Part shown: positions 3,947 through 62,965 of the stretch, in pieces
Position numbering within the stretch: position 1 is the first letter of the stretch
How the letters are laid out: every line of letters starts with the position of its first letter
Assembly (NCBI GenBank): GCA_049472335.1
Contig: JBLIRO010000001.1
Location: 12,225 to 76,224, forward strand
Origin: a bacterium
Lineage (GTDB): Bacteria; SZUA-182; DTGQ01; JAFGSM01
Direction: 5' to 3'
Length of the DNA stretch: 64,000 bases
Made by a program: the position numbers and the translations under genes
The notes under the pieces: model-generated
The model's database searches: none
Told to the model about the DNA's origin: nothing
Seen by the model: the letters and a program-made list of their open reading frames with translations, nothing else

Positions 3947-6311
3947 ATGATAAGGGATATGAGAGATGATCTTTCTCATTTCTGGAGTCTTCCTGCAGAA
4001 GAGTTAATGAAAATCCTGAAGACCTCATACAGGGGTCTCACAGGGGATGAGGCCGCTCTGAGACTGGCCCGGAACGTATCGGGAAAACTTCAAGATAAAA
4101 GTCGTTCAGGCCTGCCAACCCTTTTTCTCTCCCAGTTTAAAAGCCCTATTATCCTTATCCTCCTTTTCGCCGCAGTCCTTTCCTTTTTTCTCCACGATCC
4201 GGTTGACGCCCTGATCATATGCTCCATTATCCTCGTCAGCGGCGTGCTCGGTTTTTTTCAGGAGAAAAGTGCTGCGAGTGCGGTTGAAAAACTCCTGTCT
4301 ATAGTGAGGATGTACACATTGGTGTGCTCCCGGAAGGCACTCCCCTATCTCGCCGCAGCAATGTCCTTTTTATGGGCTCCCACGTAGTGAGCGGTAGTGC
4401 CCGTGCCATGGTTGTAAAAACCGGTAACGATACAGAGTTGGGTAAAATCTCCGGAAGGCTCAGACTGAGGCCCCCTCAAACTGAATTCGAGCGAGGTGTG
4501 GCACGTTTTGGATATATGCTCATGGAGCTTACACTGATACTTGTTGTGGCCATCTTCGCTATAAACGTCTACCTTAAGCGGCCGGTGCTTGAGTCCTTTC
4601 TCTTTTCCCTTGCCCTGGCAGTCGGCCTCACCCCGCAACTTTTACCTGCCATTGTGAGCGTCAACCTGGCACATGGCGCACGCCGTATGGCAAAAGCCAA
4701 GGTCATCGTAAAACGCCTTTTTTCCATAGAAAACCTGGGGAGTATGAACGTTATGTGTTCGGATAAGACTGGAACACTGACCGAGGGTGCGGTGCGGGTA
4801 CAAGGATACTACAATGCATCAGGGGAGAAGGATGAACGCGTCCTTTTTTATGCCTATCTCAACTCCTTCTATGAAACAGGGTATCAGAATCCAGTGGATG
4901 AGGCAATCCGGGGTTTCCGGTCTCTCAATATCAATGGATTTATAAAAAAAGGTGAGGTCCCCTACGATTTTATCCGAAAAAGGATCAGCATTTTAGCGGC
5001 CAAAGAAGAGGATAGCTATCTGATCACAAAGGGGGCTTTACGAAACGTCCTGGAGATTTGTGATTTTGCTGATCAGGGCCGAGGAAAAATTGCAGATCTT
5101 GCAGAGGGACGCAAGGTTATAGAGGATCGTTACAGCGGCTTCAGCAGAGAGGGCATGCGTATCCTGGGATTGGCGCTTAAAAAACTGGACGGGGAGCCGG
5201 GGGTTCTCAGAGAATAGGAGGCAGGGATGACCTTCATTGGTTTTCTGGTCTTCTCTGATCCTCCCAAGCAGGTGATCGCCGAAACAATAAACCGTTTCAA
5301 AGAGATCGGTGTCTCTTTCAAAATGGTCACAGGTGACAATCCCCTGGTGGCAGCAGCCATAGGCAGGCAGGTTGGACTTTCCCCAGAAAAGATACTCACA
5401 GGGCCCGAAGTGAGAAAGATGGGGGATGACGCCCTGCGACAGCGGGTGGAGGAGGTGGATATATTCGCCGAGGTGGAGCCTAACCAGAAAGAGCGGATAA
5501 TCCTTGCCTTCAAAAAGGCTGGCAGTGTGGTAGGGTATCTTGGCGACGGTATCAACGATGCGACCGCCTTGCATGCTGCTGATGCAGGCATTTCTGTGGA
5601 CAGCGGTGTGGATGTGGCGAAGGAAGCAGCCGATATAATCCTGCTGGATAAAGATCTCGATGTGATGATAGAGGGGGTTCTAGAGGGACGGACTACCTTT
5701 GCAAATACACTCAAATATGTATTTATGGCATCCAGCGCCAACTTTGGCAACATGTTCAGCATGGCCGGCGCCTCCCTGTTTTTACCATTTCTTCCTTTAT
5801 TGCCCAAGCAGATCCTGCTCACTAATCTGCTTACGGATCTCCCTGAGATCGCCATAGCCGGTGACCAGGTGGATACTGAGTATGTGGAGCGTCCACGCCG
5901 ATGGGATAATCGTTTCATCAGGCGTTTTATGCTGATCTTCGGCCTGCTGAGCTCCTTCTTTGACTATCTCACTTTCGGCTTCCTGCTTCTATTTGGGGTG
6001 AACCGGAACCAGTTTCGCGCCGGATGGTTTGTGGAGTCAGTGGCTTCAGCGGTTTTCATAGTGCTGGTAGTGAGAACCCGCAGGGCCTTTTTAAAAGTAT
6101 GCCTGCTATCCCGCTCCTAATGACGACGATCCTGAGCGCCTGTGCTGCAGGTTTTTTACCCTTTAGCCCTCTGGCGGGTATACTCGGGTTCGAGCCTCCT
6201 CCGTTTTGGATCTTTGCGGCCCTATGCGGGATTATCCTCATATACATATTTTTTGCGGAAAGGGTAAAGGGATATTTTTATAGCAAGAACTCTATGATCT
6301 TCAGGGACTGA
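3947..6311 (+). pseudogene. mgtA: Mg2+-type P-type ATPase (MgtA-like), disrupted by two frameshifts, an apparent actuator-domain deletion and an in-frame TAG
   Basis: The P-type ATPase motifs CSDKTGTLT, MVTGDN and GDGINDA are present. The gene is split over ORFs 3947-4387, 4324-5217, 5227-6120 and 6024-6311. The ORFs 4324-5217 and 5227-6120 are in the same frame, separated by TAG at 5215-5217. The TGES/actuator region is largely missing. Confidence 0.75.
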
Positions 6312-37186: not shown

Positions 37187-40100
37187 CTACTGCACAGTTA
37201 TAAATTCACTGGCTGAATGGCTGTTGAACTCAGGCGCGTACATACACTGAATCGAGGCCATCCCCATCTGATACTCCCCTTTATGCTGTATCCTCAGAGC
37301 ATACTCAAATACATATGTTCCCTTGGGAAGATAATCAATGAAGAAATGGGTGGCCGTGTCCCTTGTGGACTCATAATATGCAAGCCCATCCTGATATTTA
37401 TATTGAGAGAGTACATTGACCGGCTCGGTTCCGGACCCTCTGTAATCCTTCATGTGAACGTACTCCATATCCCTGTCCGACCGCAATATTATCCTGACGA
37501 TAATCTTATCCCCCACGGCAAGATTGCCCTGAACCGGCTCTATCACAGGGCCTTGTGTGGTCTGTCTTTCCACATAGAGGGATTTTTCCAGTTGAAGCGG
37601 CGTATCTTCATGCGGGGTAACCTTGCTCATATCTTCAAGATACTGCCAATGGAGGCTGCCCCAGGCAATCCCATCATCGAGCTTCTCTACGGTGACCTGG
37701 CCGTAATCGGACAGGACCTCTTCCCTGATAAACTTCTTCTCATAGAACCCTGTGCCCGCTTCGGTGGTCTCAGGGACTATCAACATATCTCCCAGGGTCA
37801 CATTAACCAGTTGATCAGAGGCGAGTAGGTTTTCACCCCTCAGCAGGAGTGCATAGACTGCATCGGCAGTAGCTTTGGAGGTCTTCCAGTTCTGGGTTTG
37901 CTTCTGCTTTAGCAGCCATACCTTTAGATCCTCTACTGCTGTCTGGTCATCAGCCACTTCATCAAATGCCTCTATCATCACTGCCTGGGTTTCTATGGGG
38001 GCATGGAACCACCACCAGGAAAGCTCCAGGTCCCTCCAGAACATGCCCAACTCCTCATCGCTGACTGAGCGTTCCTTCAGGGAGGCCATTATTTTGTTGG
38101 CTGTCACCGGATCATTAAACCTGTTACAGGCCAGAGCCAGGTGTCCCTGGGATAGTCTCGAGTTTAGATCAAGCCAGTATACTGCTGCCTGACCCAGGAA
38201 ATAATAGACCGCTTCCTGACAGTCATCAGGAATAGGCTGGATATCCTTGTAAAAGGATCTTCCGTAAAGATACATGGCAATGATGCTGGTGAGGTTGTTC
38301 AGCTCAGGGTGCCCATACTGTTTGATTTTCTCATATCTATCTTTGATGGAATTATCCAGATAATCAAGGCTTCTTATGGCCAAATCCTGTTGAATATCGA
38401 TATTCATATGCCGTAAGCGGCCGAAACCTGTCATGATATATAATGTCATATAGAAATTAGCCGGTCCGCCGGGGAACCAGGACCATGCCCCGTCCGAACG
38501 CTGCATCTGGGAAAGTTTGTAATAGGCGCTGGAAAGGGACGTCTCCATCTGATCTTCATCAAAGAGCAGGCCCACACGTCTTTTGGCCTCCGATTCACTT
38601 TCTGCGGCCCTGACCCAGGGGGTCTCCTCCAGGAGAACAGACTTTAGTTCCTCATTCTTTTCCAGATTGGAATCCAATGCATCGGTTTCCCGCCATTGAT
38701 CAAAGACACTTTTAATTTCAGGGTCCGAATTGGCAATATGCCTGGCTAGGGCATTGGCGTAAAGCCGGTTGAAGGCACTTGTTGAACATTCATGCTGATA
38801 TTCTATCAAGTATGGCAGGCTCTGCACCGCATACCAGGCCGGATTGCTTACCATCTGCAGTGTAAGGGCTTGATGCTCCAATGTGTCTGATGCATCCGAT
38901 TCAAGAAGCTTGTCAAAACTGAATATCTTGGTCTGGGCCCCACGAATGGGTAACGGGAGCGATTCGGTCACAAAAATTCTGTTTGAAAGCACCGGCAGGC
39001 AGGCTTCCTCACCGTCAGAGAGCGTTCCTGTGGAGGCTACAACCCTGTGGGTTAGAGCGCCTGTAAAGTCGTCCGGGACCTCGATCTCCCAGTAATAGGA
39101 CCGGGAGCTGTTTGCCGGCACGGAAAAAGACTGATCTGGCTGGCCAATTTGAAATTCATTATCCAGAGATTGCCCGGTAGAGGCATCCGACAGGGTCAAC
39201 CTGATAGTCCCGTTTAGTCCCTGATCAGATATATTAGTCACCTTGGCTGAGAATAAAAGGATATCCCCTTCTCTAAAAAAACGGGGAGGATTGGGCTGCA
39301 CCATCAAATCCTTTTTAGTCACGGTCTCTTCGGAAAGCATTCCCCAGAGCAGGTCTCTGGCATGGGCAAAACCCATAAATTTCCAGGTTGTCAATGCCTC
39401 GGGTATGGTGAATGTAATGGAGACCCGGCCCTCTTCATCTGTAAGCAGGTGAGGGAAAAAGAAGGCTGTCTCATCCAGGTTTGTTCTGGCTGAAACCTGA
39501 GAAAGGTCTATCTCCTCCTCAGGCTCTTCAACAGAACCTGCTGTTTCACCTCCATATGCGGGGGGGGCTGGTGTCTTATCTGCACCATCAGCGTCTTGTG
39601 CACTGTTATATGAGTACGATGAGTACGATTCTGAATACCCGTACATTCCTCCACCATAACCATAATAATAGCCCGGATATCCATAATTGCCATAGTTCTG
39701 AATAACGTCATCAGGAAATCGGGTATAGGTCCTGCTAATATAACCTGAGACATATTCGTTCCACTCATATGTCCGGCTCCTGGGATAACTGACATTATTA
39801 GCAAACCAGATTGAGAGGCTGCTGTAATCCTGTCTGAAGATAGACCCAAGTCCGGACCAGTTGTGGATTTGAAATAGATCGAGGGAGGAATCATACAGGG
39901 TAGCCACCATTTCTGCGGCCACATGTTCCGCCTCAGATCCCTTGATCTGGATTGTCCAGGTTTCTTCAGCCCCGGGGTCAAGCTTCGACCTGAAGGAAGA
40001 AAAGCTTACTTCAAGGTCCTTATTTGTCCAGGGGACATCTATGCGTTCTTCCGAAATATAGGCGCGGTTGTCATGCACCTGAGTTATATGCAGGAAGAAT

Positions 40101-43100
40101 CCCCCTCTGTATCCCTCAAGAACAGGCCACGTTACTTTTTGCTGGGTATTCTGAGCTTCTGTCCAGTAGCTTTCTACAATCTGCCCTCTATGTTCAATCT
40201 CGATAAAGGCATGGCCCTCCTGATAGCCGGTGCCCCAAATGGCTTCAAGTGTATCACCGACCTCCAGGGTCGTGGATTTCAACTTTACCATATCCGGGAT
40301 AGGGACATTATAATCAGACGCGCCGGGATCAATCACCATTATCGGAAGCACAGCACTTACTTCCTCACCATGACTATCATAAGCCGTGGCTATTGCTTTG
40401 TATACACCTGGCTGGAGGACAAAGGAGACCTTATGTTCCCCTTCAGAGGTATTGAACTGGGAGGAGGCCACTGCTTCATTTTCCGGCCAGTTTTCCCATT
40501 TGGATTCATCTACGCTATCTTCAGACTCTCCCATAGGCTGACCCAGGAGGGATGATCTTACAGGCCTTTGAGGCTGCTTTAAATCAAATACCGTTATGGT
40601 TCCAACGGCATTGAGAGGTTGTTGATCCAGCGTCATGGCAGAGACGCTCAATTCTACAGGCTCGTCACTGGTTAACCAGTCGGAGGCGGAGATATTCAGT
40701 TCCATAGATACGTATCCGATATTTACCCTCCTGCTGGCCGAGCGTGTCTCGCCTGCGCCGTCTGTAACATCGGCCGAAACCTTGAAGATAAATGTCGGCT
40801 TATCCGATTCAGGTATGGAACGGTCAGGCCTGGCTGTGAAACGAATGTGAAATCTGCCTTCCGAGTCGGTCTGGAGCCGGCCGTGTGCTATCTCCCTGGC
40901 GCTCGAAGATTGGTATCTGCGCCACCAGCACCAATAGGGATAGCGCACCTCTCTAACCACCCGGTAAGAGACATTGGCGTAATCAATCGGCGCCCCGGTA
41001 TAGGCCATGGCAAGGCCTGAAAGCTCGACCTCTTCATCCAGACGGCTCTCCGCTGTAGGCGGATCAAGGGTTACTCTAAACTTGGGCCTCTTGTATTCTT
41101 CCACTCTGATACTTGTACTCCCGCTCGGCTGGCTGCAGCTTATGGTCATATTCCCGGCAAGTATTCCGGCAGGAGCGGTAAATGTGCCGGAAGCAGAGCC
41201 GAATGCGTTTGTAATCAGATCCAGATGTTCGACCTCCTGGTAATTGTGATCCCTAAACATAATAGTCAGGCTGGTATTTGGAAGGAAATCGTAGGTATCG
41301 TTATCCTGGTTGCTCTTTATGGCCAGAACCTTGAAATGAATCATCTGGCCGGGTCTGTAAATGGCCCGGTCGGTAAAAAATATCGTCCTTTTATATTCGC
41401 CATTTTCTTCTCTTTCATAGGTATAACCTGACCAGCCCAGCAATTCATATCCTTGATATTTAGCGTGCAACACTCTGGTTCTATTAGAAGGGTTAGGGAC
41501 AGTAAAGGAACCCTTTTCATCTGTATAGGTTACAGCCGCCTGGTAATAATTTCCCTCTGAGTTTTGTATAAAGATGGTTATCACAGCCCCTTCAAGAGGT
41601 GCCCCGCTATGGGCATCCAGTATAAAACCACCGGCTGTGCCATCAATTGACTTCGTCACCATGGCTATCTCTGTCACCCAGAATGTAACAATCCTTATGG
41701 CGTTTTTATCCTCCGCGAAATCCTCTCGCCACGAGGCTATCAACCTATAATAACCCGGTTCTAAAGAAGGCAGATCAATGGCATGAGAGTGAGTTTTGTA
41801 ATCTATGGTCGGTTCCAGATCGAGTGACCATGATTTTGCAGGTATTGCTTGAATAAGCTCCTGAAACTTATCATTATCTATATAATACGGTGAGCTGTAA
41901 GTTTCTTCTAAAAATTCATCCCATTGATCCTTTACTACACGAAAATGCACCTTGTCAATATTTCTATAATCGATCCTGACTTCGCTATATGAAGGAGTAA
42001 CTGAATATTCACTCTGCAGGGTCATCTCCTTTGCCTCTATCTGGCTCAGGAGAGATCGACACATATTCGACCCGTATGAGCCTGTATGCTGAGCTTCACC
42101 TATTTTGGCAATCCTGTGCGCTTCAACATAGTTGTCCTGACCATAGAGTTCCTGGGCCCAGTAATAGTACGCCAGACTCGATAGGGACATATATGAGTAA
42201 GTCTCGGCAATCTCGGACAGCCTCGTCATATAATGACTGGATTTTTCCTCTCCAAATGAATATCCCTTAATGAATGCCAGCCTGTTGATATCCGCGTCAA
42301 CAAAGGCCTCTTTTGAGGAGTCATTGATGTGAAAACCCAGAACCTTCTGGTAAAGCTTCATGGCCTTTAACACAGGAGATGAGGTGTCTGTTGTTTCAGG
42401 TGTATATAGTATAAAATCCGCTGCCGGTGCAAAGGCGTCCGAATCCGCATCCAGCTCGAAGGCATCCTCCGGCTCATTTCTGAGCTGATCGCCATCCTGG
42501 TAAAAGGAAATGGCGGAAAAAGCGGCAAAATCAAACAGTGTTGGCCTGTAGGACACCGGAACAGTGCCTTGTTCAAAAAAATCACTAAACGTTTCCATTG
42601 ACATGGATTTCAACTGCTCCTCCTTGGAAAGCACCTCGGTGTATAGCTCATCTATTTTGTCAAAAAGCCGGGGCAGGTCCCAGGTAGTAAAATCCGACTC
42701 ATCTATAACAGCAGTGGCATCACGCTCTGAAAAGCGCCACCGGTTTTCCTGATAGTACTGCCAATACCATTGAGCCAAGACAAGCTTTAACAGAGGCTTA
42801 AGTAAATCAGGGGCATTCTCTATCTCTTCAGTCAGCCTTATTATCTTTTCCTCAGGTTTATCTCCCTGAATATTGGCTTCAAGCACAAGCTGTTTGCAGA
42901 TCCCCTTCATGGCCAGGCCGTATTTTTCCTTTTCAAGGGCAATAGGTATGAATTCCTCCAGACGATCTATAGCCGTCACGGGGAGACCGTTTTCAATGGC
43001 CTCACCGATTTTTCCCCATAACCGTTCAAGGTCCTCATCAGTAGGAGGAGTAGCCGGCCATGCCCACAGACCGGTTCTCAAATAAAGGGTATCAAAAGGC

Positions 43101-43591
43101 CAACCAAGCCCGCTGAACGGCAAATATGGAGACCCATACAATGATAGTGATGAATAAAATGGAGCCGCTATCAGCCGGGGGCTTACAGATGGGCTTTCAT
43201 TTGATGAAGCTGCGGATTCCAGACCCAACGAAGATGTATTTAACAATGGCAGAGAATCTGAGTGCGAAGAGGCCCAAAGAGGGCTTAGGAGGCTTGGAGT
43301 CTCCTCGTAAGAGGTCCAATATGGGCCCAAAAAACTCGGATAAACGGATGATGCCCGGGGGGTCAGAAAAAAGTTTGGAACTATGGATGGTTGAGAAAAA
43401 AAGTAATTCCCATATAAATTGCCAGGTAATATATTACCAAATATCGATGCTACAAAATTTGAAGATATATAATAAGGGTATGAAAATGGCTGTAATGTCT
43501 GAGCCTGAGCACTTACCGCCGCTATACAGCATATTATTGAAATCAGTATTATTGCTGTATAAATCTTTTGTCTTATGTTAAGACTTTTCAT
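37187..43591 (-). CDS. Alpha-2-macroglobulin family protein (MG domains + alpha/alpha-toroid TED-like domain + receptor-binding-like C-terminus); no canonical thioester
   Basis: The 2134-aa product has a signal peptide and a TED-like region (DGAWSWFPGGPANFYMTLYIMTGF). The thioester position reads YQHECSTSAF rather than CGEQ. The ATG at 43591 is preceded by a GGAGGA RBS. Confidence 0.7.
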   Translation of the reverse strand: MKSLNIRQKIYTAIILISIICCIAAVSAQAQTLQPFSYPYYISSNFVASIFGNILPGNLYGNYFFSQPSIVPNFFLTPRASSVYPSFLGPYWTSYEETPSLLSPLWASSHSDSLPLLNTSSLGLESAASSNESPSVSPRLIAAPFYSSLSLYGSPYLPFSGLGWPFDTLYLRTGLWAWPATPPTDEDLERLWGKIGEAIENGLPVTAIDRLEEFIPIALEKEKYGLAMKGICKQLVLEANIQGDKPEEKIIRLTEEIENAPDLLKPLLKLVLAQWYWQYYQENRWRFSERDATAVIDESDFTTWDLPRLFDKIDELYTEVLSKEEQLKSMSMETFSDFFEQGTVPVSYRPTLFDFAAFSAISFYQDGDQLRNEPEDAFELDADSDAFAPAADFILYTPETTDTSSPVLKAMKLYQKVLGFHINDSSKEAFVDADINRLAFIKGYSFGEEKSSHYMTRLSEIAETYSYMSLSSLAYYYWAQELYGQDNYVEAHRIAKIGEAQHTGSYGSNMCRSLLSQIEAKEMTLQSEYSVTPSYSEVRIDYRNIDKVHFRVVKDQWDEFLEETYSSPYYIDNDKFQELIQAIPAKSWSLDLEPTIDYKTHSHAIDLPSLEPGYYRLIASWREDFAEDKNAIRIVTFWVTEIAMVTKSIDGTAGGFILDAHSGAPLEGAVITIFIQNSEGNYYQAAVTYTDEKGSFTVPNPSNRTRVLHAKYQGYELLGWSGYTYEREENGEYKRTIFFTDRAIYRPGQMIHFKVLAIKSNQDNDTYDFLPNTSLTIMFRDHNYQEVEHLDLITNAFGSASGTFTAPAGILAGNMTISCSQPSGSTSIRVEEYKRPKFRVTLDPPTAESRLDEEVELSGLAMAYTGAPIDYANVSYRVVREVRYPYWCWWRRYQSSSAREIAHGRLQTDSEGRFHIRFTARPDRSIPESDKPTFIFKVSADVTDGAGETRSASRRVNIGYVSMELNISASDWLTSDEPVELSVSAMTLDQQPLNAVGTITVFDLKQPQRPVRSSLLGQPMGESEDSVDESKWENWPENEAVASSQFNTSEGEHKVSFVLQPGVYKAIATAYDSHGEEVSAVLPIMVIDPGASDYNVPIPDMVKLKSTTLEVGDTLEAIWGTGYQEGHAFIEIEHRGQIVESYWTEAQNTQQKVTWPVLEGYRGGFFLHITQVHDNRAYISEERIDVPWTNKDLEVSFSSFRSKLDPGAEETWTIQIKGSEAEHVAAEMVATLYDSSLDLFQIHNWSGLGSIFRQDYSSLSIWFANNVSYPRSRTYEWNEYVSGYISRTYTRFPDDVIQNYGNYGYPGYYYGYGGGMYGYSESYSSYSYNSAQDADGADKTPAPPAYGGETAGSVEEPEEEIDLSQVSARTNLDETAFFFPHLLTDEEGRVSITFTIPEALTTWKFMGFAHARDLLWGMLSEETVTKKDLMVQPNPPRFFREGDILLFSAKVTNISDQGLNGTIRLTLSDASTGQSLDNEFQIGQPDQSFSVPANSSRSYYWEIEVPDDFTGALTHRVVASTGTLSDGEEACLPVLSNRIFVTESLPLPIRGAQTKIFSFDKLLESDASDTLEHQALTLQMVSNPAWYAVQSLPYLIEYQHECSTSAFNRLYANALARHIANSDPEIKSVFDQWRETDALDSNLEKNEELKSVLLEETPWVRAAESESEAKRRVGLLFDEDQMETSLSSAYYKLSQMQRSDGAWSWFPGGPANFYMTLYIMTGFGRLRHMNIDIQQDLAIRSLDYLDNSIKDRYEKIKQYGHPELNNLTSIIAMYLYGRSFYKDIQPIPDDCQEAVYYFLGQAAVYWLDLNSRLSQGHLALACNRFNDPVTANKIMASLKERSVSDEELGMFWRDLELSWWWFHAPIETQAVMIEAFDEVADDQTAVEDLKVWLLKQKQTQNWKTSKATADAVYALLLRGENLLASDQLVNVTLGDMLIVPETTEAGTGFYEKKFIREEVLSDYGQVTVEKLDDGIAWGSLHWQYLEDMSKVTPHEDTPLQLEKSLYVERQTTQGPVIEPVQGNLAVGDKIIVRIILRSDRDMEYVHMKDYRGSGTEPVNVLSQYKYQDGLAYYESTRDTATHFFIDYLPKGTYVFEYALRIQHKGEYQMGMASIQCMYAPEFNSHSASEFITVQ

Positions 43592-44029
43592 TTGTTTTTT
43601 CCTCCTTCTATCTATCGGTATTGCTGATCCGAAGGAGCCCCCCCTCTTCATGACAGCATTTTTAAATAAGGATACGAACGGATAGGCCGAACGTACAGGT
43701 CATATTTAATGCATATAACGTGCCTGTGTTTTATCCCCTTTCCTTCTCATTAGAAGTATTGGATGCATTTTTTTGTCTCTATATAATAGACGTAAAAACT
43801 TCTACAGTTTCCTACGAAAAAATCAAATGTTATTGATTTTTTATTGACAGGACTATCTATTCTCACATATACTTTCCCGTATTAAAATAGATACAAATTT
43901 TGCATTGTATTAATTTTCAAAGACAGGCTTGAGTCCATAATTGTCATTATATTTTTAATATAAGAGAAAAAAGTCTAAAAATCTAATGGACATCCCGGAG
44001 CGCCAAGGGGTGAAAAAGGAGGGGGAAAA

Positions 44030-53120: not shown

Positions 53121-53480
53121 AGCATTCCCCTTAAATAAATTTATTTCATTGCCATTAAATTTCATAAGGAATTGCTTTAAAATAAATAATGAATAGGATT
53201 TGCTTTCCTGTATAAAAGTATAAGCAGAGCTTTCGACTTTTGTTTAAAAAGCTCCTATCTGCATCGTATAGCTCATTTACTAAAATATGGAAGATTTTTA
53301 ATGTCTCACAAACATATCAAATCGCTTGCAAAAAAACAACTGTAGAAGCAGTTTCCAACTAATTATTTTTTTTATAAACTTTTATCCTTCGGTGTGATCC
53401 ATAGATCATGAGTGTTTAGCAAAAGATGAATCTGGTAAATTTCAATCTCTGGCTAAGAAAAAAGAGATAGATGAAATCAT

Positions 53481-53567
53481 CTATCTCTTTTTTGCAATGA
53501 ATAAGGCATTGATATCATTATCAGTAAAATAATGGATTGCCAGCCTTAATATTAGTCTTGGTCTTCA
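53481..53567 (-). CDS. Tiny ORF (28 aa, GTG start) VKTKTNIKAGNPLFYCNDINALFIAKKR, a paralogue of the neighbouring 19-aa ORF
   Basis: The SD GGGGGTG lies 9 nt upstream. The N-terminus matches the 53655-53714 ORF with mainly synonymous differences. The 3' end overlaps an A/T-rich palindrome (53458-53493). Confidence 0.35.
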
Positions 53568-53654
53568 CTTTTAATTCACCCCCTTTTTATTGGAAGAAGA
53601 ACGTGTCACAAGGTCTTTTTCAATATATAATCTTGAGTTTTAAAAGATTAGTGT

Positions 53655-53714
53655 TTAGTATGACCACCAGGGTTTGACATCCACTCCGGCTTTAATGTAG
53701 GTTTTGGTCTTCAT
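53655..53714 (-). CDS. Tiny ORF (19 aa) MKTKTYIKAGVDVKPWWSY with a strong Shine–Dalgarno site
   Basis: The SD AGGAGGTG lies 7 nt upstream of the ATG. The paralogue 90 nt downstream conserves the first 10 aa. Confidence 0.45.
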   Translation of the reverse strand: MKTKTYIKAGVDVKPWWSY

Positions 53715-53885
53715 TCCAATTCACCTCCTTTTTTGCTTTCTGATTTAATAGACGAACAAAAATTATTTTTTCCTTTTTAGATTTTTTATTTTGGGACAAG
53801 CTGATTTTTTTCTACTGCAGAATGACCTTTTACGATCCTATCATTACTGAGAAATCATGGGAATTTGCCTATTGGGAAAAAAACA

Positions 53886-53915
53886 CTTGCATACGTCTAT
53901 TAGAATGAGATATAA
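53886..53915 (+). promoter_or_regulatory. Candidate sigma70-type promoter (TTGCAT-N18-TATAAA) for the HlyD–ABC cassette
   Basis: Hexamers spaced 18 nt apart lie about 30 nt upstream of the ATG at 53946. Confidence 0.25.
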
Positions 53916-53945: not shown

Positions 53946-55496
53946 ATGTCCTTTACCCGGTCCCTCAGATTTATATATACTGAAAGATCTCGTCTTCCTT
54001 TATGGGGAATCTTTATTCTTATCATTCTCCTTACCTGCTGGATGGTATGGTTTTCTTCCGTAAAGATTCCCATTTATACAATGACGGATTCAGCCCGCCT
54101 AGAAGTGGATCAGGCTTCACACCCCATACAAACATCCATTGATGGAAAGATCACAGAGATTTCCATGAAGCTCGGACAGGAGGTCCAGGTTGGAACAATC
54201 CTGGTCAGATTGGATGATCAGTCCCTTCAGTTGAGAAGAAAAGAAGCGCTGGACCGGTTCAACTCTCTCTCCGCCGAAGCATCGGCCCTGGAAAAACAGA
54301 TATCCCAGGAAGAAATGCTCCTTGAAGAGGAAGGAAAAATCGTCCTTATAAAACTTCAGGAGGCGCGATCCCGTTATCAAGAAGGAGAGATAGCGGCAGT
54401 ATTCGCGGAGGATGAAGTCAAACGTTTAAACAAGCTTTTCACCCAGGGGGCACTATCTGAGTCAAAACTTTTACACGCTAAATCCGAAGCCGAAAAGAAA
54501 AGGGCGTCTGCAGAAGCGCTTCGTATCGCCCTTGACAGGCTAAGAGGGGAATGTCAGGTCCAGGAGAAGAGACGCCAAACGCGCTTGAGTCAACTCAGGC
54601 AGCAACTGCTTCACATTCAGGGAGAGATTCAGAACAGCGCCACGGTAATGGAGCAGCTCGACTGGGAGATTGAGAAGCACCTTATCAGGACTCTGGTGGC
54701 CGGCGAAATTGCCGAGATTGCCGACCTTCATCTCGGGATGTTTATTGAAGAAGGATATAGGCTAGGCGCCATTCTGCCCCAGGGCAAGCTCCGTGTGGTG
54801 GCATATTTTGAGCCGGCAGTCGCCCTTGGCAAGGTTCACCCCGGCCAGAAGGCTCATCTGAGGATGAAGGGCTTTTCCTGGCTGGAATACGGCCGGGTGG
54901 CGGCAAGGGTCCAGAAGGTAAGCCAGGAGATCCGCCACGGACAGTTGCGGGTCGATCTGGAGGTCGACGATAAGGACAGCCCCATCCCTCTGCAGCATGG
55001 TCAGCCGGTAAGGGTCGAGATTGAAACCGAAAGGATTACCCCAGCAACACTGGTTCTGCGAAAAGCGGGAAATGTCTTTTCCCCCGGGTCTCCTTCCGTT
55101 TCCATCAATAATCATTCCCTGACCGTGGAAGTTGTTGCCACCAGAGCAGCAAGACAGCGGGGCCTGATGTACCGGGAAATGCTTCCGGCCGATCATGGGA
55201 TGTTGTTTGTTTTCCCAAGGGAAGGCCCTCTTTCATTCTTGATGAAAGATACGTTTATCCCGCTCAGTATAGCCTTTCTTAATTCCGAAGGGATCATCCT
55301 GAAGATTATGAAAATGTATGTTGAACCTACGAATAATGAAGCGTTGTCTAGAACATATGCCACGGACCCTCATGCGCCTGCTATGTATGCCCTGGAAGTG
55401 AATCAGGGCTGGTTTGAAAGCCATGGGGTTAGACGTGGAAACCGGGTAAAAGGTCTCAAACGATTGAATATCGGCTTTGTAGAATCCCAGGCCTGA
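53946..55496 (+). CDS. HlyD-family periplasmic adaptor (type I / bacteriocin secretion) fused to a C-terminal DUF192/UPF0127 domain
   Basis: The N-terminal TM helix, lipoyl-like domain, long coiled coil and beta-barrel are typical of HlyD. The C-terminal ~110 aa (…RGLMYREMLPADHGMLFVFPREGPLSFLMKDTFIPLSIAFLNSEGII…YALEVNQGWF…GNRV) match the UPF0127/DUF192 consensus. Confidence 0.75.
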   Translation: MSFTRSLRFIYTERSRLPLWGIFILIILLTCWMVWFSSVKIPIYTMTDSARLEVDQASHPIQTSIDGKITEISMKLGQEVQVGTILVRLDDQSLQLRRKEALDRFNSLSAEASALEKQISQEEMLLEEEGKIVLIKLQEARSRYQEGEIAAVFAEDEVKRLNKLFTQGALSESKLLHAKSEAEKKRASAEALRIALDRLRGECQVQEKRRQTRLSQLRQQLLHIQGEIQNSATVMEQLDWEIEKHLIRTLVAGEIAEIADLHLGMFIEEGYRLGAILPQGKLRVVAYFEPAVALGKVHPGQKAHLRMKGFSWLEYGRVAARVQKVSQEIRHGQLRVDLEVDDKDSPIPLQHGQPVRVEIETERITPATLVLRKAGNVFSPGSPSVSINNHSLTVEVVATRAARQRGLMYREMLPADHGMLFVFPREGPLSFLMKDTFIPLSIAFLNSEGIILKIMKMYVEPTNNEALSRTYATDPHAPAMYALEVNQGWFESHGVRRGNRVKGLKRLNIGFVESQA

Positions 55497-55520: not shown

Positions 55521-58262
55521 ATGCTTGTTTCTCTTATCAAAAAACAGAAAAAATCTTTTATCCCGGAGGTCATTCAAAGCTCGGCCATGGATTGCGGTCC
55601 GGCTTCGCTCAAGGCCCTTCTGGAAGGATTCGGCATCCCGGTAAGTTATGGGCGGCTCCGCGAAGCATGTCAGACCAGTGTGGATGGAACGTCCATTGAC
55701 ACACTGGAGGAAGTTTCCAATCAGCTCGGCCTTGAAGCAGAGGAGATCATGCTCCCCCCGGATCACTTCTTTCTCCCGGAAGCGAAGGCCCTGCCCGCTA
55801 TAGTCGTGGTCCGGCTCCCAAGCGGTGTGACCCATTTTGTAGTGGTCTGGGAACGCCATGGCCCTTTTGTACAGGTCATGGACCCGGGCAGCGGAAGACG
55901 CTGGGTCACCTATAAACAGTTCATGAAGGAGGTTTATATCCACCGCATGCCCGTTTCTGCCTCTCTTTGGAGGGAATGGGCAGGATCTGAGGCCTTTCTC
56001 TCTCCCTTCAAAAGGCGCCTGACTCAGCTTGGGATTTCTCAAAGGGAGCAAAAGGAGCTCATTCATCATTCCCTTTCAGACCCTGGCTGGTATCATCTTG
56101 GTGTCCTGGATGCCGCCACCCGAATGGTGGATGCCCTCATGAAAGCCGGTGGACTGCAAAGAGGTCGGGAAGCGGCAAAGGTGCTTCAAACATTTGTCCC
56201 GGAATCCCTTTCAAAGGGTCCTTTTCAGGAATCTCCCATCCCTCCCGTTTACTGGTCCATCCAGCCCATGCCTTCAGCCAGTGACGGGGAGGAGGAACAA
56301 CTGATCCTCAAGGGAATGGTCCTTGTAAGGGTATCAGGCCGCCGTTCGATCCCCTCTGATCAAAAGAAGCAGGATTTTACAGAAAAGGCTCCCCTCCCCC
56401 TGGAGCTTGAGGCAGCCCTTAAAGAACCTCCGGTCAAGCCGGGAAGGGAAATCTTAAGATTCCTCCGGGCCGATGGCATCCTGACTCCCTTAGCCCTGGG
56501 TTTTGCCTTTATTCTTGTATCCTTTGGCTTTATTCTGGAGGCCATATTATTGCGGAGCCTTTTTGAGATCGGAAGGGACCTGAACCTGATAGAACAAAGA
56601 TTAGGCGCAATGGGGGCCCTTATCATCTTTTCCCTTGCCCTGCTGTTGTTAGAGCTCCCTATTGGCTCATGCATCTTAAAACTGGGGCGGCATCTGGAAT
56701 CCCGGCTCAGGATAGCGTTTTTGCAAAAGCTCCCCCGGCTTCAGGACCGCTATTTCCAGAGCCGGCTCAATTCGGACATGGCGGAACGATCTCACAGTGT
56801 TAACAAGATAAGGCTTTTACCCGGATTGGGCAGCCGGTTTGTACGCTCTATAATAGAGTTCTTCATCACTGCCGCGGCCATTGTGTGGCTCTTTCCGGAA
56901 AGTCTTTTAATAGTCCTGGCAGGCGTTTTCCTCACCATCATTATACCGCTTGCCAGCCTGTCATTCCTCACGGAAAGGGACCTTCGGGTACGAAGCCATC
57001 TGGGGGCCTTAAGCCGTTTTTACCTGGATACACTTCTGGGGCTTGTCCCCACGAGGGCACATAGCGCTCAAAAACCTATATGCAGGGAACATGAAAGCAT
57101 GCTCGTGGAATGGAGCAGGGCAAGCCTTCGTAATGTGATCGCTGTACTGACTGTGGAGGCAGTTCAGGACCTGATCGGGTTCGGTATCGCCTTCTGGCTG
57201 CTCCTGCACTATTATAAACGGGGAGGGCCTGAAAGCGGCGTACTTCTCCTGGTTTACTGGGGTCTACATCTATCCGCGCTGGGCCAGGAAATTATAAAAA
57301 CAGCCCGCCAGTATCCTACCCATCGCAATATCGCCCTGCGTCTCATGGAGCCTTTAGGGGCTCCTGAAGAAAACTCCTCCCGGGGAGGGGATTTGTCCCA
57401 AACGAAGGACTCATCTCCTTCAAAAAACAATCTTTCTCATGGGATCTCCATATCCATGGAAGGGGTGGGTATAAAGATCTCCGGTCACAACATATTAGAA
57501 GGCGTGGACCTTGCCATTCCGCCCGGTGCCCATTTCGCAATCATCGGACCATCCGGAGCTGGAAAATCAAGCCTGGTCGGCCTTCTCCTGGACTGGTACC
57601 GTCCGTCCGCGGGAAAGATCCTGATCAATGGAAGGCCTCTTACACCTGAAGTATTGGAAAATATGCGCAAGTCCACCGCCTGGATCGATCCGGCTATACA
57701 GCTTTGGAACCGCTCCCTTATAAAGAACATTTACTACGGCATCGATCCTGAATCAGCCTCTCCTGCCGGAATGGTCATGGAAGAGGCCCAGCTTATGGAA
57801 CTTCTGGAGAAATTACCTCAAGGCCTGGGAACAATCCTGGGAGAAGGCGGAGCACTGGTTTCCGGAGGGGAAGGCCAAAGGGTGCGCCTGGCACGGGCCA
57901 TGGCAAAGGGCGATGTCCGTCTTGTAATCCTGGATGAGCCATTTCGGGGGCTCGACCATCAAAAAAGGGATGAGCTTCTCAATAAGGCCCGCTGCCTCTG
58001 GAAGGATGCCACCCTGATCTGCATTACGCACGATATCAGCGCCACAAAGAGCTTTGACAGGGTCATTGTCATAGAGCATGGGAAGATTGTCGAGCAGGGG
58101 GCCCCGAAAGACCTCGCGGAAAAGGCGGATTCCTTTTACCGGAAATATCTGGATTTTGAAAAAGCGGTCACAGAAGAGATTTGGCGTAAATCATTGTGGA
58201 GGAGGATCTCCATCAAAAAGGGAAGGATTATAGAGGAGGGAGTCCCTGATGGAAAGGTTTGA
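55521..58262 (+). CDS. Peptidase-C39-domain ABC transporter (bacteriocin/peptide processing-export, permease + ATPase)
   Basis: The C39 catalytic Cys (SAMDCGPASL) and His (THFVVVW) are present, followed by six TM helices. The ATPase carries Walker A GPSGAGKSS, signature LSGGEGQR and Walker B LVILDE. Confidence 0.85.
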   Translation: MLVSLIKKQKKSFIPEVIQSSAMDCGPASLKALLEGFGIPVSYGRLREACQTSVDGTSIDTLEEVSNQLGLEAEEIMLPPDHFFLPEAKALPAIVVVRLPSGVTHFVVVWERHGPFVQVMDPGSGRRWVTYKQFMKEVYIHRMPVSASLWREWAGSEAFLSPFKRRLTQLGISQREQKELIHHSLSDPGWYHLGVLDAATRMVDALMKAGGLQRGREAAKVLQTFVPESLSKGPFQESPIPPVYWSIQPMPSASDGEEEQLILKGMVLVRVSGRRSIPSDQKKQDFTEKAPLPLELEAALKEPPVKPGREILRFLRADGILTPLALGFAFILVSFGFILEAILLRSLFEIGRDLNLIEQRLGAMGALIIFSLALLLLELPIGSCILKLGRHLESRLRIAFLQKLPRLQDRYFQSRLNSDMAERSHSVNKIRLLPGLGSRFVRSIIEFFITAAAIVWLFPESLLIVLAGVFLTIIIPLASLSFLTERDLRVRSHLGALSRFYLDTLLGLVPTRAHSAQKPICREHESMLVEWSRASLRNVIAVLTVEAVQDLIGFGIAFWLLLHYYKRGGPESGVLLLVYWGLHLSALGQEIIKTARQYPTHRNIALRLMEPLGAPEENSSRGGDLSQTKDSSPSKNNLSHGISISMEGVGIKISGHNILEGVDLAIPPGAHFAIIGPSGAGKSSLVGLLLDWYRPSAGKILINGRPLTPEVLENMRKSTAWIDPAIQLWNRSLIKNIYYGIDPESASPAGMVMEEAQLMELLEKLPQGLGTILGEGGALVSGGEGQRVRLARAMAKGDVRLVILDEPFRGLDHQKRDELLNKARCLWKDATLICITHDISATKSFDRVIVIEHGKIVEQGAPKDLAEKADSFYRKYLDFEKAVTEEIWRKSLWRRISIKKGRIIEEGVPDGKV

Positions 58263-60369
58263 TATCCTCTACTGGCCTGTCTCCAGACTGGGAGAGGCAC
58301 TAAAGCTTATGGGTGAAATAAGCGGCCTTTCTCCGAAGCCTGAGGAAATCCCTTTGGCCCCTAAAGGGACTAGTGAGAACGAGGACTCCATCTCGGAATG
58401 GATCGAAGCCCTGGCGCAATGGATAGGCATTGAAGCCGAGCCGATGGAGGTCAGCTACGGGGATGTGGAAACATTTATCCTGCGGTCGGCCCCGGCCCTC
58501 ATCCGTCTGCCGGGGGATGGCTCTCCATCCTTTTTTGCACTTCTTGGACAGAAAAAGAAAAAGGCCCTTGTTTTAGGAAAAGACGGGGGCATTCACCCCA
58601 TGGAGGTATCTCACATTGCAAAGATGCTTTGCGGGCCCATGGAGGAAATGCTGGGGCCGCAGATCGAAGATCTGTTAAACAGGGCAGAGATCCCGGAAAA
58701 AAAGAGGGCCGGAATCAAACAGGAGCTTCTTTCCACCCATCTTTCACCTGTTTTGTTAAAGGGATTCTGGCTGCTCCGCCTTGCACCATACCGGGGCTTT
58801 TTTAAGACCCTGTTCCAGGCAAAGGTGATCTTCCCTTTTTTTACCTTTCTCCTTGTCCACACCTTCCAATATCTCTTATGGATACTCTCCTGGTGGGTTA
58901 TAGGAAAAGGGGCGCTTGAGGGCCACCTGCATCTGGAATGGATCATGGGATGGGGGCTTCTCCTTTTGAGCCTTGTTCCCTTAAAGGCCCTTGTGACATG
59001 GGCCGAAGGGCGCCTGGCCATAGGAGTGGGCGGGGTGTTTAAACAGAGGTTACTCTATGGCGCCATGCGTATAGAACCGGATGACATCCGGCACCTTGGA
59101 TCAGGTGCCCTCCTGGGGCGTGTTTTCGAATCAGAAGCCCTGGAATCCCTGGCCCTGAGCGGGGGATTTACAGCGATCCTCGCCCTGGTGGAGCTTATCA
59201 TCTCTCTCGCTGTCCTCATGATAGGTGCAGCCGCGTGGCTTCATACACTGTTTTTTATCCTATGGATGGCCATATTTTCGGTTATACTTTTAAAGTACTT
59301 GAAAGCCCATAAGCTCTGGGTAGAAGGCCGTATCCGGATGACGAACGACCTGGTGGAAAAGATGGCAGGGCATCGGACAAGGCTCACCCAGGAAGCAAAA
59401 GAGCGTTGGCATCAGGGAGAGGATGAAGCCTTGGAGGAGTATCTAAAACAATCAAAGAGGTTAGACCGGTCTTCCCTCCTGATCATGTCCCTTATCTCAA
59501 GGGGATGGATGGTCCTGGGCCTGACCGGACTTGCCCCTGCCTTTGTCCGGGGCGTTTCTCCCGCCTATCTGGCGATCAGCCTGGGAGGAGTGCTGCTGGT
59601 ATATAAGGCACTTAAAAGCCTCTCTGTCAGCCTTGTGCAGCTCATCGGGGCATTCGTAGCATGGAAATACGTATCTCCCTTTTTATATGCAGCCGGCAAA
59701 CCCGAAGAGACAGGGGTCCCCACGTGGACAAAAGCCCGGGAAGACCTTTCGGAAAAGGACCCCCTTCTGGTATCAAGGCACCTGTTTTTTCATTACCCTA
59801 ACCGAAGGGATCCCGTCATTCAGGATAGTGACCTTTCCATCTATTGGGGTGACAAGATACTGCTTGAAGGCCCCTCCGGATGCGGGAAGTCCACCTTGAG
59901 CGCCATCTTATCCAACCTGCGCGATCCCAAGGGAGGCATAATTCTCCTGCACGGACTGGACCGGAACATCCTGGGAAGGAAAAACTGGCACAAATCCGTG
60001 TGCGTTGCACCTCAATTTCATGAAAACCATGTGTTTACAGAAACCTTTGCCTTCAATCTGCTGATGGGGCATCGATGGCCTCCCCGGCCGGAAGATATGC
60101 AGGAGGCAGAAACCATCTGCCATGAGCTCGGACTCAGCGAGGTCCTTTTAAGGATGCCAGCGGGACTGCTCCAGATGGTTGGAGATACCGGATGGCAGCT
60201 CTCCCATGGGGAAAAAAGCCGCCTTTACATGGCAAGGGCCCTTCTCCAAAAGGCGGACCTTATCATCCTGGATGAAACCTTTGCCGCTCTGGACCCCCAG
60301 ACCCTTGAACAATGTCTGCAATGTGTGCTTCGCCGGGCCAAAACCCTTCTGGTGATCACCCATCGTTAA
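58249..60369 (+). CDS. Second ABC transporter (permease + ATPase) with a degenerate, Cys-less N-terminal C39-like domain
   Basis: Carries Walker A GPSGCGKST, signature LSHGEKSR and Walker B LIILDE. It is translationally coupled to the upstream ABC gene and has a strong RBS AGAGGAGGG. Confidence 0.8.
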   Translation: MERFDILYWPVSRLGEALKLMGEISGLSPKPEEIPLAPKGTSENEDSISEWIEALAQWIGIEAEPMEVSYGDVETFILRSAPALIRLPGDGSPSFFALLGQKKKKALVLGKDGGIHPMEVSHIAKMLCGPMEEMLGPQIEDLLNRAEIPEKKRAGIKQELLSTHLSPVLLKGFWLLRLAPYRGFFKTLFQAKVIFPFFTFLLVHTFQYLLWILSWWVIGKGALEGHLHLEWIMGWGLLLLSLVPLKALVTWAEGRLAIGVGGVFKQRLLYGAMRIEPDDIRHLGSGALLGRVFESEALESLALSGGFTAILALVELIISLAVLMIGAAAWLHTLFFILWMAIFSVILLKYLKAHKLWVEGRIRMTNDLVEKMAGHRTRLTQEAKERWHQGEDEALEEYLKQSKRLDRSSLLIMSLISRGWMVLGLTGLAPAFVRGVSPAYLAISLGGVLLVYKALKSLSVSLVQLIGAFVAWKYVSPFLYAAGKPEETGVPTWTKAREDLSEKDPLLVSRHLFFHYPNRRDPVIQDSDLSIYWGDKILLEGPSGCGKSTLSAILSNLRDPKGGIILLHGLDRNILGRKNWHKSVCVAPQFHENHVFTETFAFNLLMGHRWPPRPEDMQEAETICHELGLSEVLLRMPAGLLQMVGDTGWQLSHGEKSRLYMARALLQKADLIILDETFAALDPQTLEQCLQCVLRRAKTLLVITHR

Positions 60370-62520: not shown

Positions 62521-62965
62521 ATAAGATTGGAAATACATATTTCCCTTTTTATATGCAGCCGGCTAGTCCGAAGAGACAGGTGTTCCTGTATGGACGAAAG
62601 ACCGGGAAACCTTTGCCTTCAACCTGCTGATGGGACACCGATGGCCACCCCGGCCGGAAGATATGCAGGAGGCCGAAACCATCTGCCATGAGCTCGGACT
62701 CAGTGAGGTCCTTTTAAGGATGCCCGCTGGACTGTTACAGATGGTGGGAGATACCGGGTGGCAGCTCTCCCATGGGGAAAAAAGCCGCCTTTATATGGCA
62801 AGGGCGCTTCTTCAAAGGGCGGACCTTATCATCCTGGATGAAACCTTTGCAGCACTTGCCCCCCAGACCCTCGAACAATGCCGGCAATGTGTCTTAGCCG
62901 GGCCAAAACCCTTCTGGTTATCAACCACCGTTAATTAAAACCATAACCATAAGGATTTACCCACA
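62521..62965 (+). pseudogene. Decayed partial duplicate of the 3' end of the ABC gene at 58249-60369
   Basis: Nucleotide identity to 59664-60395 is high but interrupted by an internal ~287-bp deletion at an AACCTTTG microhomology and a 1-bp frameshift near the end. The identity extends 25 nt past the stop codon. Confidence 0.75.

Follow-up and report, generated by a model that had tools for sequence, protein, structure and literature searches.

Two tiny leader/core peptide genes beside a peptidase-containing ABC exporter belong to a large family of candidate secreted signals

Can an open reading frame (ORF) of fifteen or nineteen codons beside a peptide exporter be a gene in its own right and, if so, what would its product do? 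The question is raised by 64,000 nucleotides of bacterial DNA (GTDB lineage SZUA-182; DTGQ01; JAFGSM01; assembly GCA_049472335.1, contig JBLIRO010000001.1, positions 12,225 to 76,224, forward strand), here called the window, in which two such frames, ORF1 and ORF2, lie on the minus strand (Table 1). Their neighbours are those named in a preliminary description of this DNA: on the plus strand, an HlyD-family adaptor (carrying also a DUF192 domain), an ATP-binding cassette (ABC) transporter with a C39 peptidase domain and a second ABC subunit; on the minus strand, downstream of the peptides, a giant RHS/teneurin-like gene, which encodes 2405 amino acids (aa) rather than the 2390 first given. Comparison with relatives leads us to regard ORF1 and ORF2 as genuine genes that code for protein under selection and belong to a large family. 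The best explanation of the whole, to which we assign a probability of roughly 0.65, is that their products are substrates of the exporter that would be cut after Ala-Gly and secreted, most probably as signals.

Re-reading of the strand places ORF1 where it had been described, behind a strong Shine-Dalgarno (SD) sequence, AGGAGGTG, at 53729-53722, the start being given as nine bases 3' of AGGAGGTG. For ORF2 the SD sequence (GGGGGTG, 53583-53577) stands, the start lies one base from the coordinate first assigned, and the length of 28 aa falls: that reading, with its tail CNDINALFIAKKR, came from a one-base frame slip, and the real product has 15 aa. Its start codon is GTG (53568-53566), the product being written (f)MKTKTNIKAGNPLFY, and its last sense codon, tac (53526-53524), is followed directly after ...NPLFY by three stops, TGA TAA TGA, at 53523-53515 (TAA and TGA at 53520-53515). 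Recoding of the TGA was considered and rejected, as long ORFs are intact under translation table 11 and a TAA follows directly. The two SD regions form a direct repeat in a repeat search, and both peptides end in Tyr. Over codons 2-10 six codons differ, five of them by synonymous third-position changes (aaa/aag, acc/act, aaa/aag, gcc/gct, gga/ggc) and one exchanging Tyr for Asn, which is the pattern originally reported. A degenerate DNA pattern for the leader matched twice in the window and in none of 100 shuffles; when the window, with the spacer behind the second ABC gene, was scanned in six frames with relaxed motifs, no other family members came up.

The two genes are far from alone. When the pattern AARACNAARACNWAYRTNMARGCNGG was searched in a collection holding one genome per species (185,579 species), 98 stretches with 128 unique sites matched, against about nine expected by chance on our own estimate. 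The pattern imposes neither a start codon nor an SD sequence nor an ORF length, and a start codon stands directly before 118 of the 128 sites (ATG in 113), against a chance rate of about 5%; an SD sequence precedes 115 of these 118, and the median ORF length is 18 aa, with 102 of 115 no longer than 30 aa. The ten or so sites that lack a start codon are close to the number estimated for chance, and the only two cultured isolates are among them. Each leader position draws on all of its synonymous codons, so that the leader is not a DNA repeat; a chance origin is likewise not supported. Carriers number about 61 species-level genomes, all of them metagenome-assembled genomes (MAGs) and mostly from uncultured soil Acidobacteriota (Bryobacteraceae, Pyrinomonadaceae, Terriglobales/Acidobacteriaceae, Vicinamibacterales and Thermoanaerobaculia); others belong to Myxococcota and Chloroflexota, and single MAGs to Eisenbacteria, Rhodothermales, Acidimicrobiia and Gammaproteobacteria. 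Tandem arrays of two to five genes make up 33 of the 86 unique arrays. One Acidobacteriota MAG contains a 40-kb island (CAWIQL010000001.1, 3,024,001-3,064,000; loci L056, L012, L038, L023 and L021) in which at least 12 peptide genes are interleaved with two full HlyD/C39-ABC/ABC cassettes, several Ser/Thr kinases of about 970 aa and two FHA-GAF sigma-54 activators.

Members share a simple layout, in which a fixed ten-residue N-terminus, M-K-(T)-K-T-N-(V/I/L)-K-A-G, the most conserved part of the peptides, is followed by a variable C-terminal part of 3-30 aa. The leader ends at a fixed position, with Ala-Gly in nine of ten members and otherwise with S-G, C-G or A-G-G. Among the cores, subfamilies recur across species: SYR(A/V)RGTSGGF, (S/T)AVWGS, MRVA, YRIQ, LAVHTAR, GIVMTGAD and AGVRMDDNG. 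A profile search of 5.8 billion proteins added 188 longer members of 24-91 aa, all annotated as hypothetical proteins and free of Pfam domains. Many of these are concatemers of the form MK(T/V)KTN(I/V/L)KAG-G..NHN(E/Q)T(L/I)V..GL-KVKTNVKAG-..., and further concatemers occur at L015:2869, L048:1486, L073:4180 and L096:4657. Because the leader motif recurs before each unit, it is better read as a protease recognition site than as an N-terminal signal for translation. The unit itself, KVKTNVKAG plus G..NHN(E/Q)T(L/I)V..GL, is repeated from 2 to about 17 times, and within its conserved NHN(E/Q)T is an N-x-T motif resembling a sequon. Pfam and NCBIfam searches with 12 family members, up to E = 10, returned nothing meaningful.

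Selection, as judged from substitution patterns, acts on the peptide and not on the DNA. Cores from seven species whose genes share one operon position, with hlyD on one side and the C39-ABC gene on the other, give a ratio of non-synonymous to synonymous proportions (pN/pS) of 0.28 at a pS of 0.59; the xAxWGx core group gives 0.34, and the MRVA cores of two species differ by three synonymous changes and no non-synonymous ones. The leader yields a pN/pS of 0.03 at a pS of about 0.6, a value biased by the search pattern and to that extent a mark against the explanation we favour. The same emphasis on the peptide in the preliminary description is thus borne out by these ratios and by the free use of leader codons, and amino-acid conservation in related genomes clearly extends to both leader and cores.

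The closest relatives of the locus make the point at short range. The nearest other genome, L001, has an exporter 77% identical to that of the window, flanked by seven tiny peptide genes (Table 1), and a third MAG, L025, has a lone gene (leader VKTKTNVKAG, core NPLFYTSYGYF) with a terminator of its own. Codon by codon, the ORF2 core recurs in both with its amino acids conserved and synonymous differences in the DNA: aat cca tta ttt tac in ORF2 reads aat cct ttg ttt tac in L025 and agt ccc tta ttt tat in L001, where it stands behind the variant leader MKQKTGVKSG. One of the L001 genes (L001:8191-8280, plus strand) carries, after the leader, what look like the 18 opening residues of a DNA-binding protein of the HU/IHF type (MNKADLVEKMAGEAGISKV) and then a stop; it may be a pseudogene, or a gene 5' end that was captured. 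Within this lineage of window, L001 and L025, seven of ten cores end in an aromatic residue (WSY, LFY, GTY, YLF, IVF, LFY, GYF), recalling the C-termini of outer-membrane proteins that activate ECF sigma-E pathways, a parallel that is pure speculation. A metagenome scan with the HlyD protein found one close relative, on a 1.4-kb contig with no peptide genes upstream.

What, then, ties the peptides to the exporter? Neighbourhoods were viewed in 8-kb tiles around the arrays. Genes for C39-ABC/ABC proteins of about 900 aa, 41-54% identical to those of the window, lie in the tile of 25 of the 86 unique arrays, no more than 600 bp away in 16 of the 25 and accompanied by HlyD in 21, and about 25 related loci repeat the three-gene order HlyD/C39-ABC/ABC. 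Pyrinomonadaceae have the peptide gene within the exporter operon, and in two further metagenome contigs MK(V/M)KTNLKAG variants with cores of 35-42 aa flank the cassette. At the level of gene order we regard this linkage as established. The C39 domain of the window aligns with those of PCAT1 (4ry2) and ComA and keeps Gln, Cys (in DCGPASL), His (THFVVV) and Asp (MDPGSG), the four residues that we take to be the oxyanion and catalytic residues of PCAT1. Since all four are conserved, the domain should be an active protease and not a degenerate C39-like domain.

The mechanism that we propose begins with an operon in which a GGAAAA-N13-CGTCTAT motif would be followed by SD and ORF1, SD and ORF2, and an intrinsic terminator. 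The divergent cassette would be the cognate machinery of the two peptides: the C39 domain would bind the K-x-K-T-N-V-K-A-G cassette and cut after Ala-Gly, a double-glycine-type site, whereupon the heterodimeric ABC pump and its adaptor would export the C-terminal peptides (VDVKPWWSY and NPLFY), which would act outside the cell as pheromone-like signals. The suggestion that leader/core peptides are cut after Ala-Gly and leave through the adjacent C39-ABC transporter was part of the preliminary description, and comparison now lends it strong support through the shared leader, the linked cassettes and the selection on the peptides. A signalling role suggests itself because the cores are very short and conserved within subfamilies, modifying and immunity genes are absent from the recurrent neighbours, and those neighbours are, in relatives, sensory or regulatory; an antimicrobial role is less likely than that of a signal.

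The transcription signals around the two genes accord with a short operon. ORF1 and ORF2 are probably on one transcript ending at the hairpin, since ORF2 has no GGAAAA-N13-CGTCTAT motif upstream and thus no promoter-like motif of its own. The hairpin, a palindrome said early on to resemble an intrinsic terminator, does so by inverted repeat search and RNA fold (-21.7 kcal/mol for the centroid; z = -3.65 for a 91-nt segment); a consensus terminator scan did not call it. It does not, as had been claimed, contain the last codons of ORF2, for it starts 27 nt past the ORF2 stop, and it is an ordinary operon-end terminator; terminator-like inverted repeats with T runs, read by eye, also lie 3' of the peptide genes of L025 and L001. 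An Rfam scan of the whole window found no RNA family, and a tRNA scan no tRNA. The bipartite motif occurs three times in the window (Table 1), and in the form GG(G)AAAA-N13/14-CGTCTAT it also precedes hlyD of L001, the peptide gene of L025 and every peptide transcription unit of L001 (four units, six of the seven genes). From its resemblance to GGAA...CGTC we infer that it may work as an extracytoplasmic function (ECF)-sigma-like promoter, with a spacing 1-2 nt shorter than is usual for such promoters. Its third copy suggests that the giant alpha-2-macroglobulin-like gene could be co-regulated with the peptide and exporter operons.

The proposed system has its nearest counterparts among the double-glycine peptides and their peptidase-ABC transporters (ComC/ComAB; BlpC and the blp bacteriocins with BlpAB; CvaC/CvaAB; RaxX/RaxAB). 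Like these, the KTKTN family consists of small peptides, often several paralogues to a locus, whose leaders end in a pair of small residues and have a hydrophobic residue at -4, and which are linked to a C39 ABC transporter with Cys, His and Asp and to an HlyD-type adaptor. Unlike these, it has a leader of only ten residues including formylmethionine (microcin V has 15, typical leaders 15-30), ends it in Ala-Gly rather than Gly-Gly, Gly-Ala or Gly-Ser, has cores as short as 3-5 residues and uses concatemeric precursors, and the pump of the window is a probably heterodimeric pair from two genes, of about 900 and 700 aa. The published leader consensus is L(-12)xxxE(-8)L(-7) with V at -4, and AG is not among the listed pairs (GG, GA, GS; PMC6363468). 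As in the com and blp systems, relatives have a sensor kinase and a dedicated transcription activator beside the peptide genes; these are a Ser/Thr kinase and an FHA-GAF sigma-54 activator acting with sigma-54, and not a histidine kinase and response regulator. Of the com/blp circuit the window itself has the peptide, the peptidase-containing transporter and a shared promoter-like motif only, while the Acidobacteriota relatives fill all roles with other protein families; the KTKTN system may work like com/blp without being a member.

A second point of comparison is offered by the NHLP/Nif11 systems, which are matched in the order and composition of the window cassette (TIGR03794, TIGR03796 and TIGR03797), in the scattering of many precursor genes per genome away from the cassette and in the homologous exporter at L104, which sits with an NHLP-like precursor and LanM. 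Ala-Gly occurs in NHLP/Nif11 leaders as well. In contrast, neither the NHLP (TIGR03793) nor the Nif11 (TIGR03798) domain was found in ten KTKTN members at E <= 10, the leaders of those systems have some 70-80 aa against ten here, and all three exporter proteins of the window fall far under the family cut-offs: TIGR03796 is the best NCBIfam match of the C39-ABC protein (185.1 against 853.3 bits), and TIGR03797 for the second ABC subunit (96.8 against 709.4) and TIGR03794 for the adaptor (36.1 against 156.2) match without being the best. The Phr, PapR, SHP and XIP pheromones of Firmicutes resemble the KTKTN peptides in their tiny genes, mature products of about 5-10 residues and polymorphic cores; they rely on Sec or PptAB export, other proteases, re-import and cytoplasmic RRNPP regulators, and no such components were seen for KTKTN. 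In sum, the system follows the double-glycine/peptidase-ABC theme, with the cassette order of NHLP/Nif11, but fails the sequence definitions of these systems, whether leader consensus, NHLP/Nif11 domains or exporter cut-offs.

Several observations weigh against our explanation. The characterised C39 domains of LahT and ComA use hydrophobic leader positions -7 and -12, and the minimal substrates tested kept 13-14 leader residues (PMC6363468). The KTKTN leader, far shorter than any characterised double-glycine leader, has Lys at -7 and Thr at -8 and ends at -10, so that only the V/I/L at -4 fits; with the hydrophobic residues at -7 and -12 missing, its recognition by C39 must differ. To our knowledge, such pumps have no precedent for cargo as small as cores of 3-5 residues, and cleavage, export and activity are alike deduced from sequence. 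Moreover, 40 of the 86 arrays have no kinase, ABC or HlyD gene in their 8-kb tile, and the exporter is present in only about a quarter, although the shortness of the tiles and the frequent scattering of such precursors temper the weight of missing neighbours. The pump clade is not exclusive to the KTKTN family: its Chloroflexi homologue at L104 serves an NHLP-like precursor and LanM, and no KTKTN peptide lies near that homologue or near those of L101 and Desulfonema magnum. Finally, searches of the window for Ser/Thr kinase and sigma-54 activator homologues found none, nor does it have a sigma-54 motif or a sigma factor; the argument for signalling is transferred from distant relatives.

Four other explanations compete with secreted signals, and two of them are taken first. 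The preliminary description had raised the possibility of attenuation, in which translation of the ORFs would control read-through of the hairpin into the giant RHS gene, and the arrangement is inviting in that both ORFs lie upstream of that gene on its strand with a strong hairpin and U tract between. The overlap on which the idea leaned was a frame error, though, and the fold has one dominant hairpin from which no alternative anti-terminator pairing stands out; a sigma-70-like promoter candidate (53246-53217) lies between the hairpin and the RHS start, the peptides of relatives have their own terminators beside differing, unrelated genes and never an RHS gene, and arrays of up to five genes, let alone concatemers, would make no sense as attenuators. 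We therefore accord control of the giant gene virtually no credence. It is also conceivable that the N-terminal decapeptide is itself the functional part, retained in an intracellular or membrane micropeptide that modulates a kinase, activator or pump. The N-terminus is after all the most conserved part, it lacks the canonical recognition residues (PMC6363468), and some 40% of arrays are counted as having no exporter in their tile. Against this, the motif always ends in (A/S/C/G)-G like the protease sites of the C39 class and recurs internally before each concatemer unit, the core subfamilies are themselves under purifying selection, and several lineages have the peptide gene inside exporter operons, all of which leaves a retained decapeptide quite improbable.

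The two remaining explanations both have the peptides exported. If the peptides were precursors of peptides that ribosomes make and that are modified post-translationally (RiPPs), the aromatic-rich cores (PWWSY, PLFY) would be cross-linked or otherwise modified by enzymes encoded elsewhere, and the exporter would only remove the leader. The leader/core layout and aromatic cores do recall substrates of the darobactin, streptide and biarylitide type, the exporter clade serves a lanthipeptide-type cluster in L104, and the NHN(E/Q)T motif of many multi-unit relatives could be a modification site. However, no radical-SAM, P450, YcaO, LanM or similar modifying gene occurs in the 64-kb window, nor any RiPP-modifying enzyme in the neighbour families that recur around some 90 arrays, and a leader of ten residues has little space in which an enzyme could have its own recognition sequence; that the family belongs to an enzyme-modified RiPP class is not supported, and we consider this origin unlikely. 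Bacteriocin-like antimicrobials of the microcin or class II type, with tandem arrays serving as toxin cocktails, strike us as improbable. The combination of small peptide, adaptor and peptidase-ABC is that of microcin V and blp-type loci (for the transporter class, PMC6363468), the arrays contain diverse cores and an RHS toxin gene adjoins in the window; yet most cores have 3-12 residues, far below known unmodified bacteriocins, no immunity-like small membrane protein recurs among the neighbours, which are sensory or regulatory instead, and in none of the relatives examined does an RHS gene adjoin the peptide genes.

How secreted peptides of this kind might be perceived is suggested by genome loci of relatives, most of them from Acidobacteriota and Myxococcota. 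Of 155 peptide genes, 28 have upstream a sigma-54 type -24/-12 motif (TGG-N8-TTGCA), where about two would be expected; it usually stands 25-27 nt ahead of the ATG with which an array's first gene starts (e.g., L007, L027, L028, L038, L056, L057 and L061; also L069, L075, L086, L089, L092 and others). In at least ten loci an activator of about 644 aa, with FHA, GAF, Sigma54_activat and HTH (HTH_8) domains, directly adjoins the array. At 18 of the 86 arrays Ser/Thr kinases of about 900-1000 aa are encoded no more than 600 bp away, an enrichment that is an estimate made without matched random-locus controls from the same genomes; the kinases combine a kinase domain at the N-terminus with one hydrophobic segment and, C-terminally, a TPR or PD40/WD40 domain, and form orthologous groups that keep their place beside the peptides across species. 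At least one of pump, kinase, activator and sigma-54 motif accompanies 63 of 93 arrays. A correspondence of core type with kinase sensor type was not upheld, as the kinase beside YRIQ/MRVA arrays is of the PD40 type in L012 and of the TPR type in L027.

From these parts a full circuit can be sketched, in which a single-pass receptor Ser/Thr kinase would sense the exported peptide outside the cell through its TPR or beta-propeller domain, the signal of the kinase would be read by the FHA domain of the GAF-sigma-54 activator, and the activator would turn on the sigma-54 promoters of the peptide genes in an autoinduction loop. In the lineage of the window the output would have been rewired to the ECF-sigma-like GGAAAA-N13-CGTCTAT motif, common to the peptide operon, the pump operon and the alpha-2-macroglobulin-like gene. 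That KTKTNVKAG peptides might in this way be diffusible signals of an unrecognised cell-cell communication in uncultured Acidobacteriota, Myxococcota and allies is a tentative proposal, and as a complete circuit it is doubtful.

Table 1. Peptide genes, transcription signals and exporter genes of the window, with the peptides of the nearest relative
Feature	Position	Strand	Details
ORF1	53714-53655	minus	Precursor of 19 aa, MKTKTYIKAGVDVKPWWSY; leader MKTKTYIKAG (10 aa), putative core VDVKPWWSY (9 aa), plus stop; codons atg aag acc aaa acc tac att aaa gcc gga gtg gat gtc aaa ccc tgg tgg tca tac taa
ORF2	53568-53521, including TGA stop	minus	Precursor of 15 aa, VKTKTNIKAGNPLFY; leader MKTKTNIKAG, core NPLFY; codons gtg aag acc aag act aat att aag gct ggc aat cca tta ttt tac TGA TAA TGA
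Intrinsic-terminator-like hairpin	53458-53493	minus	Perfect 17-nt arms, A tract before, U tract after
Promoter-like bipartite motif	53748-53773	minus	GGAAAA-N13-CGTCTAT; upstream of ORF1
Second motif copy	53874-53900	plus	GGGAAAAA-N-CGTCTAT; faces the exporter operon; CGTCTAT at 53894-53900
Third motif copy	43768-43811 (site at 43792)	minus	GGAAAC-N14-CGTCTAT; upstream of 2154-aa alpha-2-macroglobulin-like ORF, 37187-43651
HlyD-family membrane-fusion/adaptor protein with C-terminal DUF192	53946-55496	plus	PF13437/PF13533; start 231 nt from ORF1
Peptidase-containing ABC transporter, 913 aa	55521-58262	plus	C39 domain (residues 17-137), permease, ATPase; PF03412, 74 bits
Second ABC permease/ATPase subunit, 706 aa	58249-60369	plus	No peptidase domain; probable heterodimer partner
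L001, three upstream peptides			VKTKTNVKAG-VDRGTWLNHPPIILGGPA; VKTKTNIKAG-MNKADLVEKMAGEAGISKV; ...KTKTNVQAG-AYVAPPSADPIGGGYYPINMPSLPGFLPP
L001, two downstream peptides			...KAG-QSNFPGTY; ...KSG-QIFEPYRYLF
L001, two peptides with variant leader		other strand	MKQKSGVKCG-DGSWHIVF; MKQKTGVKSG-SPLFY

Some details of the remaining genes may be added. For the adaptor, the ATG at 53946 was chosen as the start, orthologues beginning MSFT(R/S)SLR; its DUF192 domain (98 bits) spans 55143-55496, residues ~400-509, and in L001 and L002 the adaptor (420 and 382 aa) lacks the length for one. In the C39-ABC protein some 190 residues between peptidase and permease (residues ~140-325) have no Pfam match, nor does the N-terminal region of about 270 residues of the second subunit (58249-59100); such Pfam-free regions in both ABC proteins are typical of this exporter clade of about 900/700 aa. 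Elsewhere in the window a P-type ATPase is split over two adjacent plus-strand ORFs (4324-5217 and 5227-6120) and an isolated ABC ATPase fragment of 102 aa lies at 62630-62938 (plus), all probably pseudogenes or assembly frameshifts. The pump of the window is 100% identical to a protein from an unclassified NCBI MAG, and the nearest matches of its GH57 protein are unclassified MAGs, followed by Omnitrophota at about 60% identity.

Genes of 14-20 codons escape standard gene callers, and the KTKTN family is accordingly so far without a name, a Pfam or NCBIfam model, a source annotation or a searchable paper; a full-text literature search on leader and core strings and related topics, whose coverage excluded supplements and subscription papers, found no description of it. 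Should the proposed mechanism hold, the family would have the shortest known leader for a peptidase-ABC exporter, a nine-residue recognition cassette reused in concatemers, which would be of practical interest for peptide secretion and processing tags. For Acidobacteriota, among the most abundant and least understood of soil phyla, it would also be the first concrete candidate for signalling by peptides, with a receptor logic, from Ser/Thr kinase to FHA activator to sigma-54, that would differ from the two-component logic of Gram-positive pheromones.

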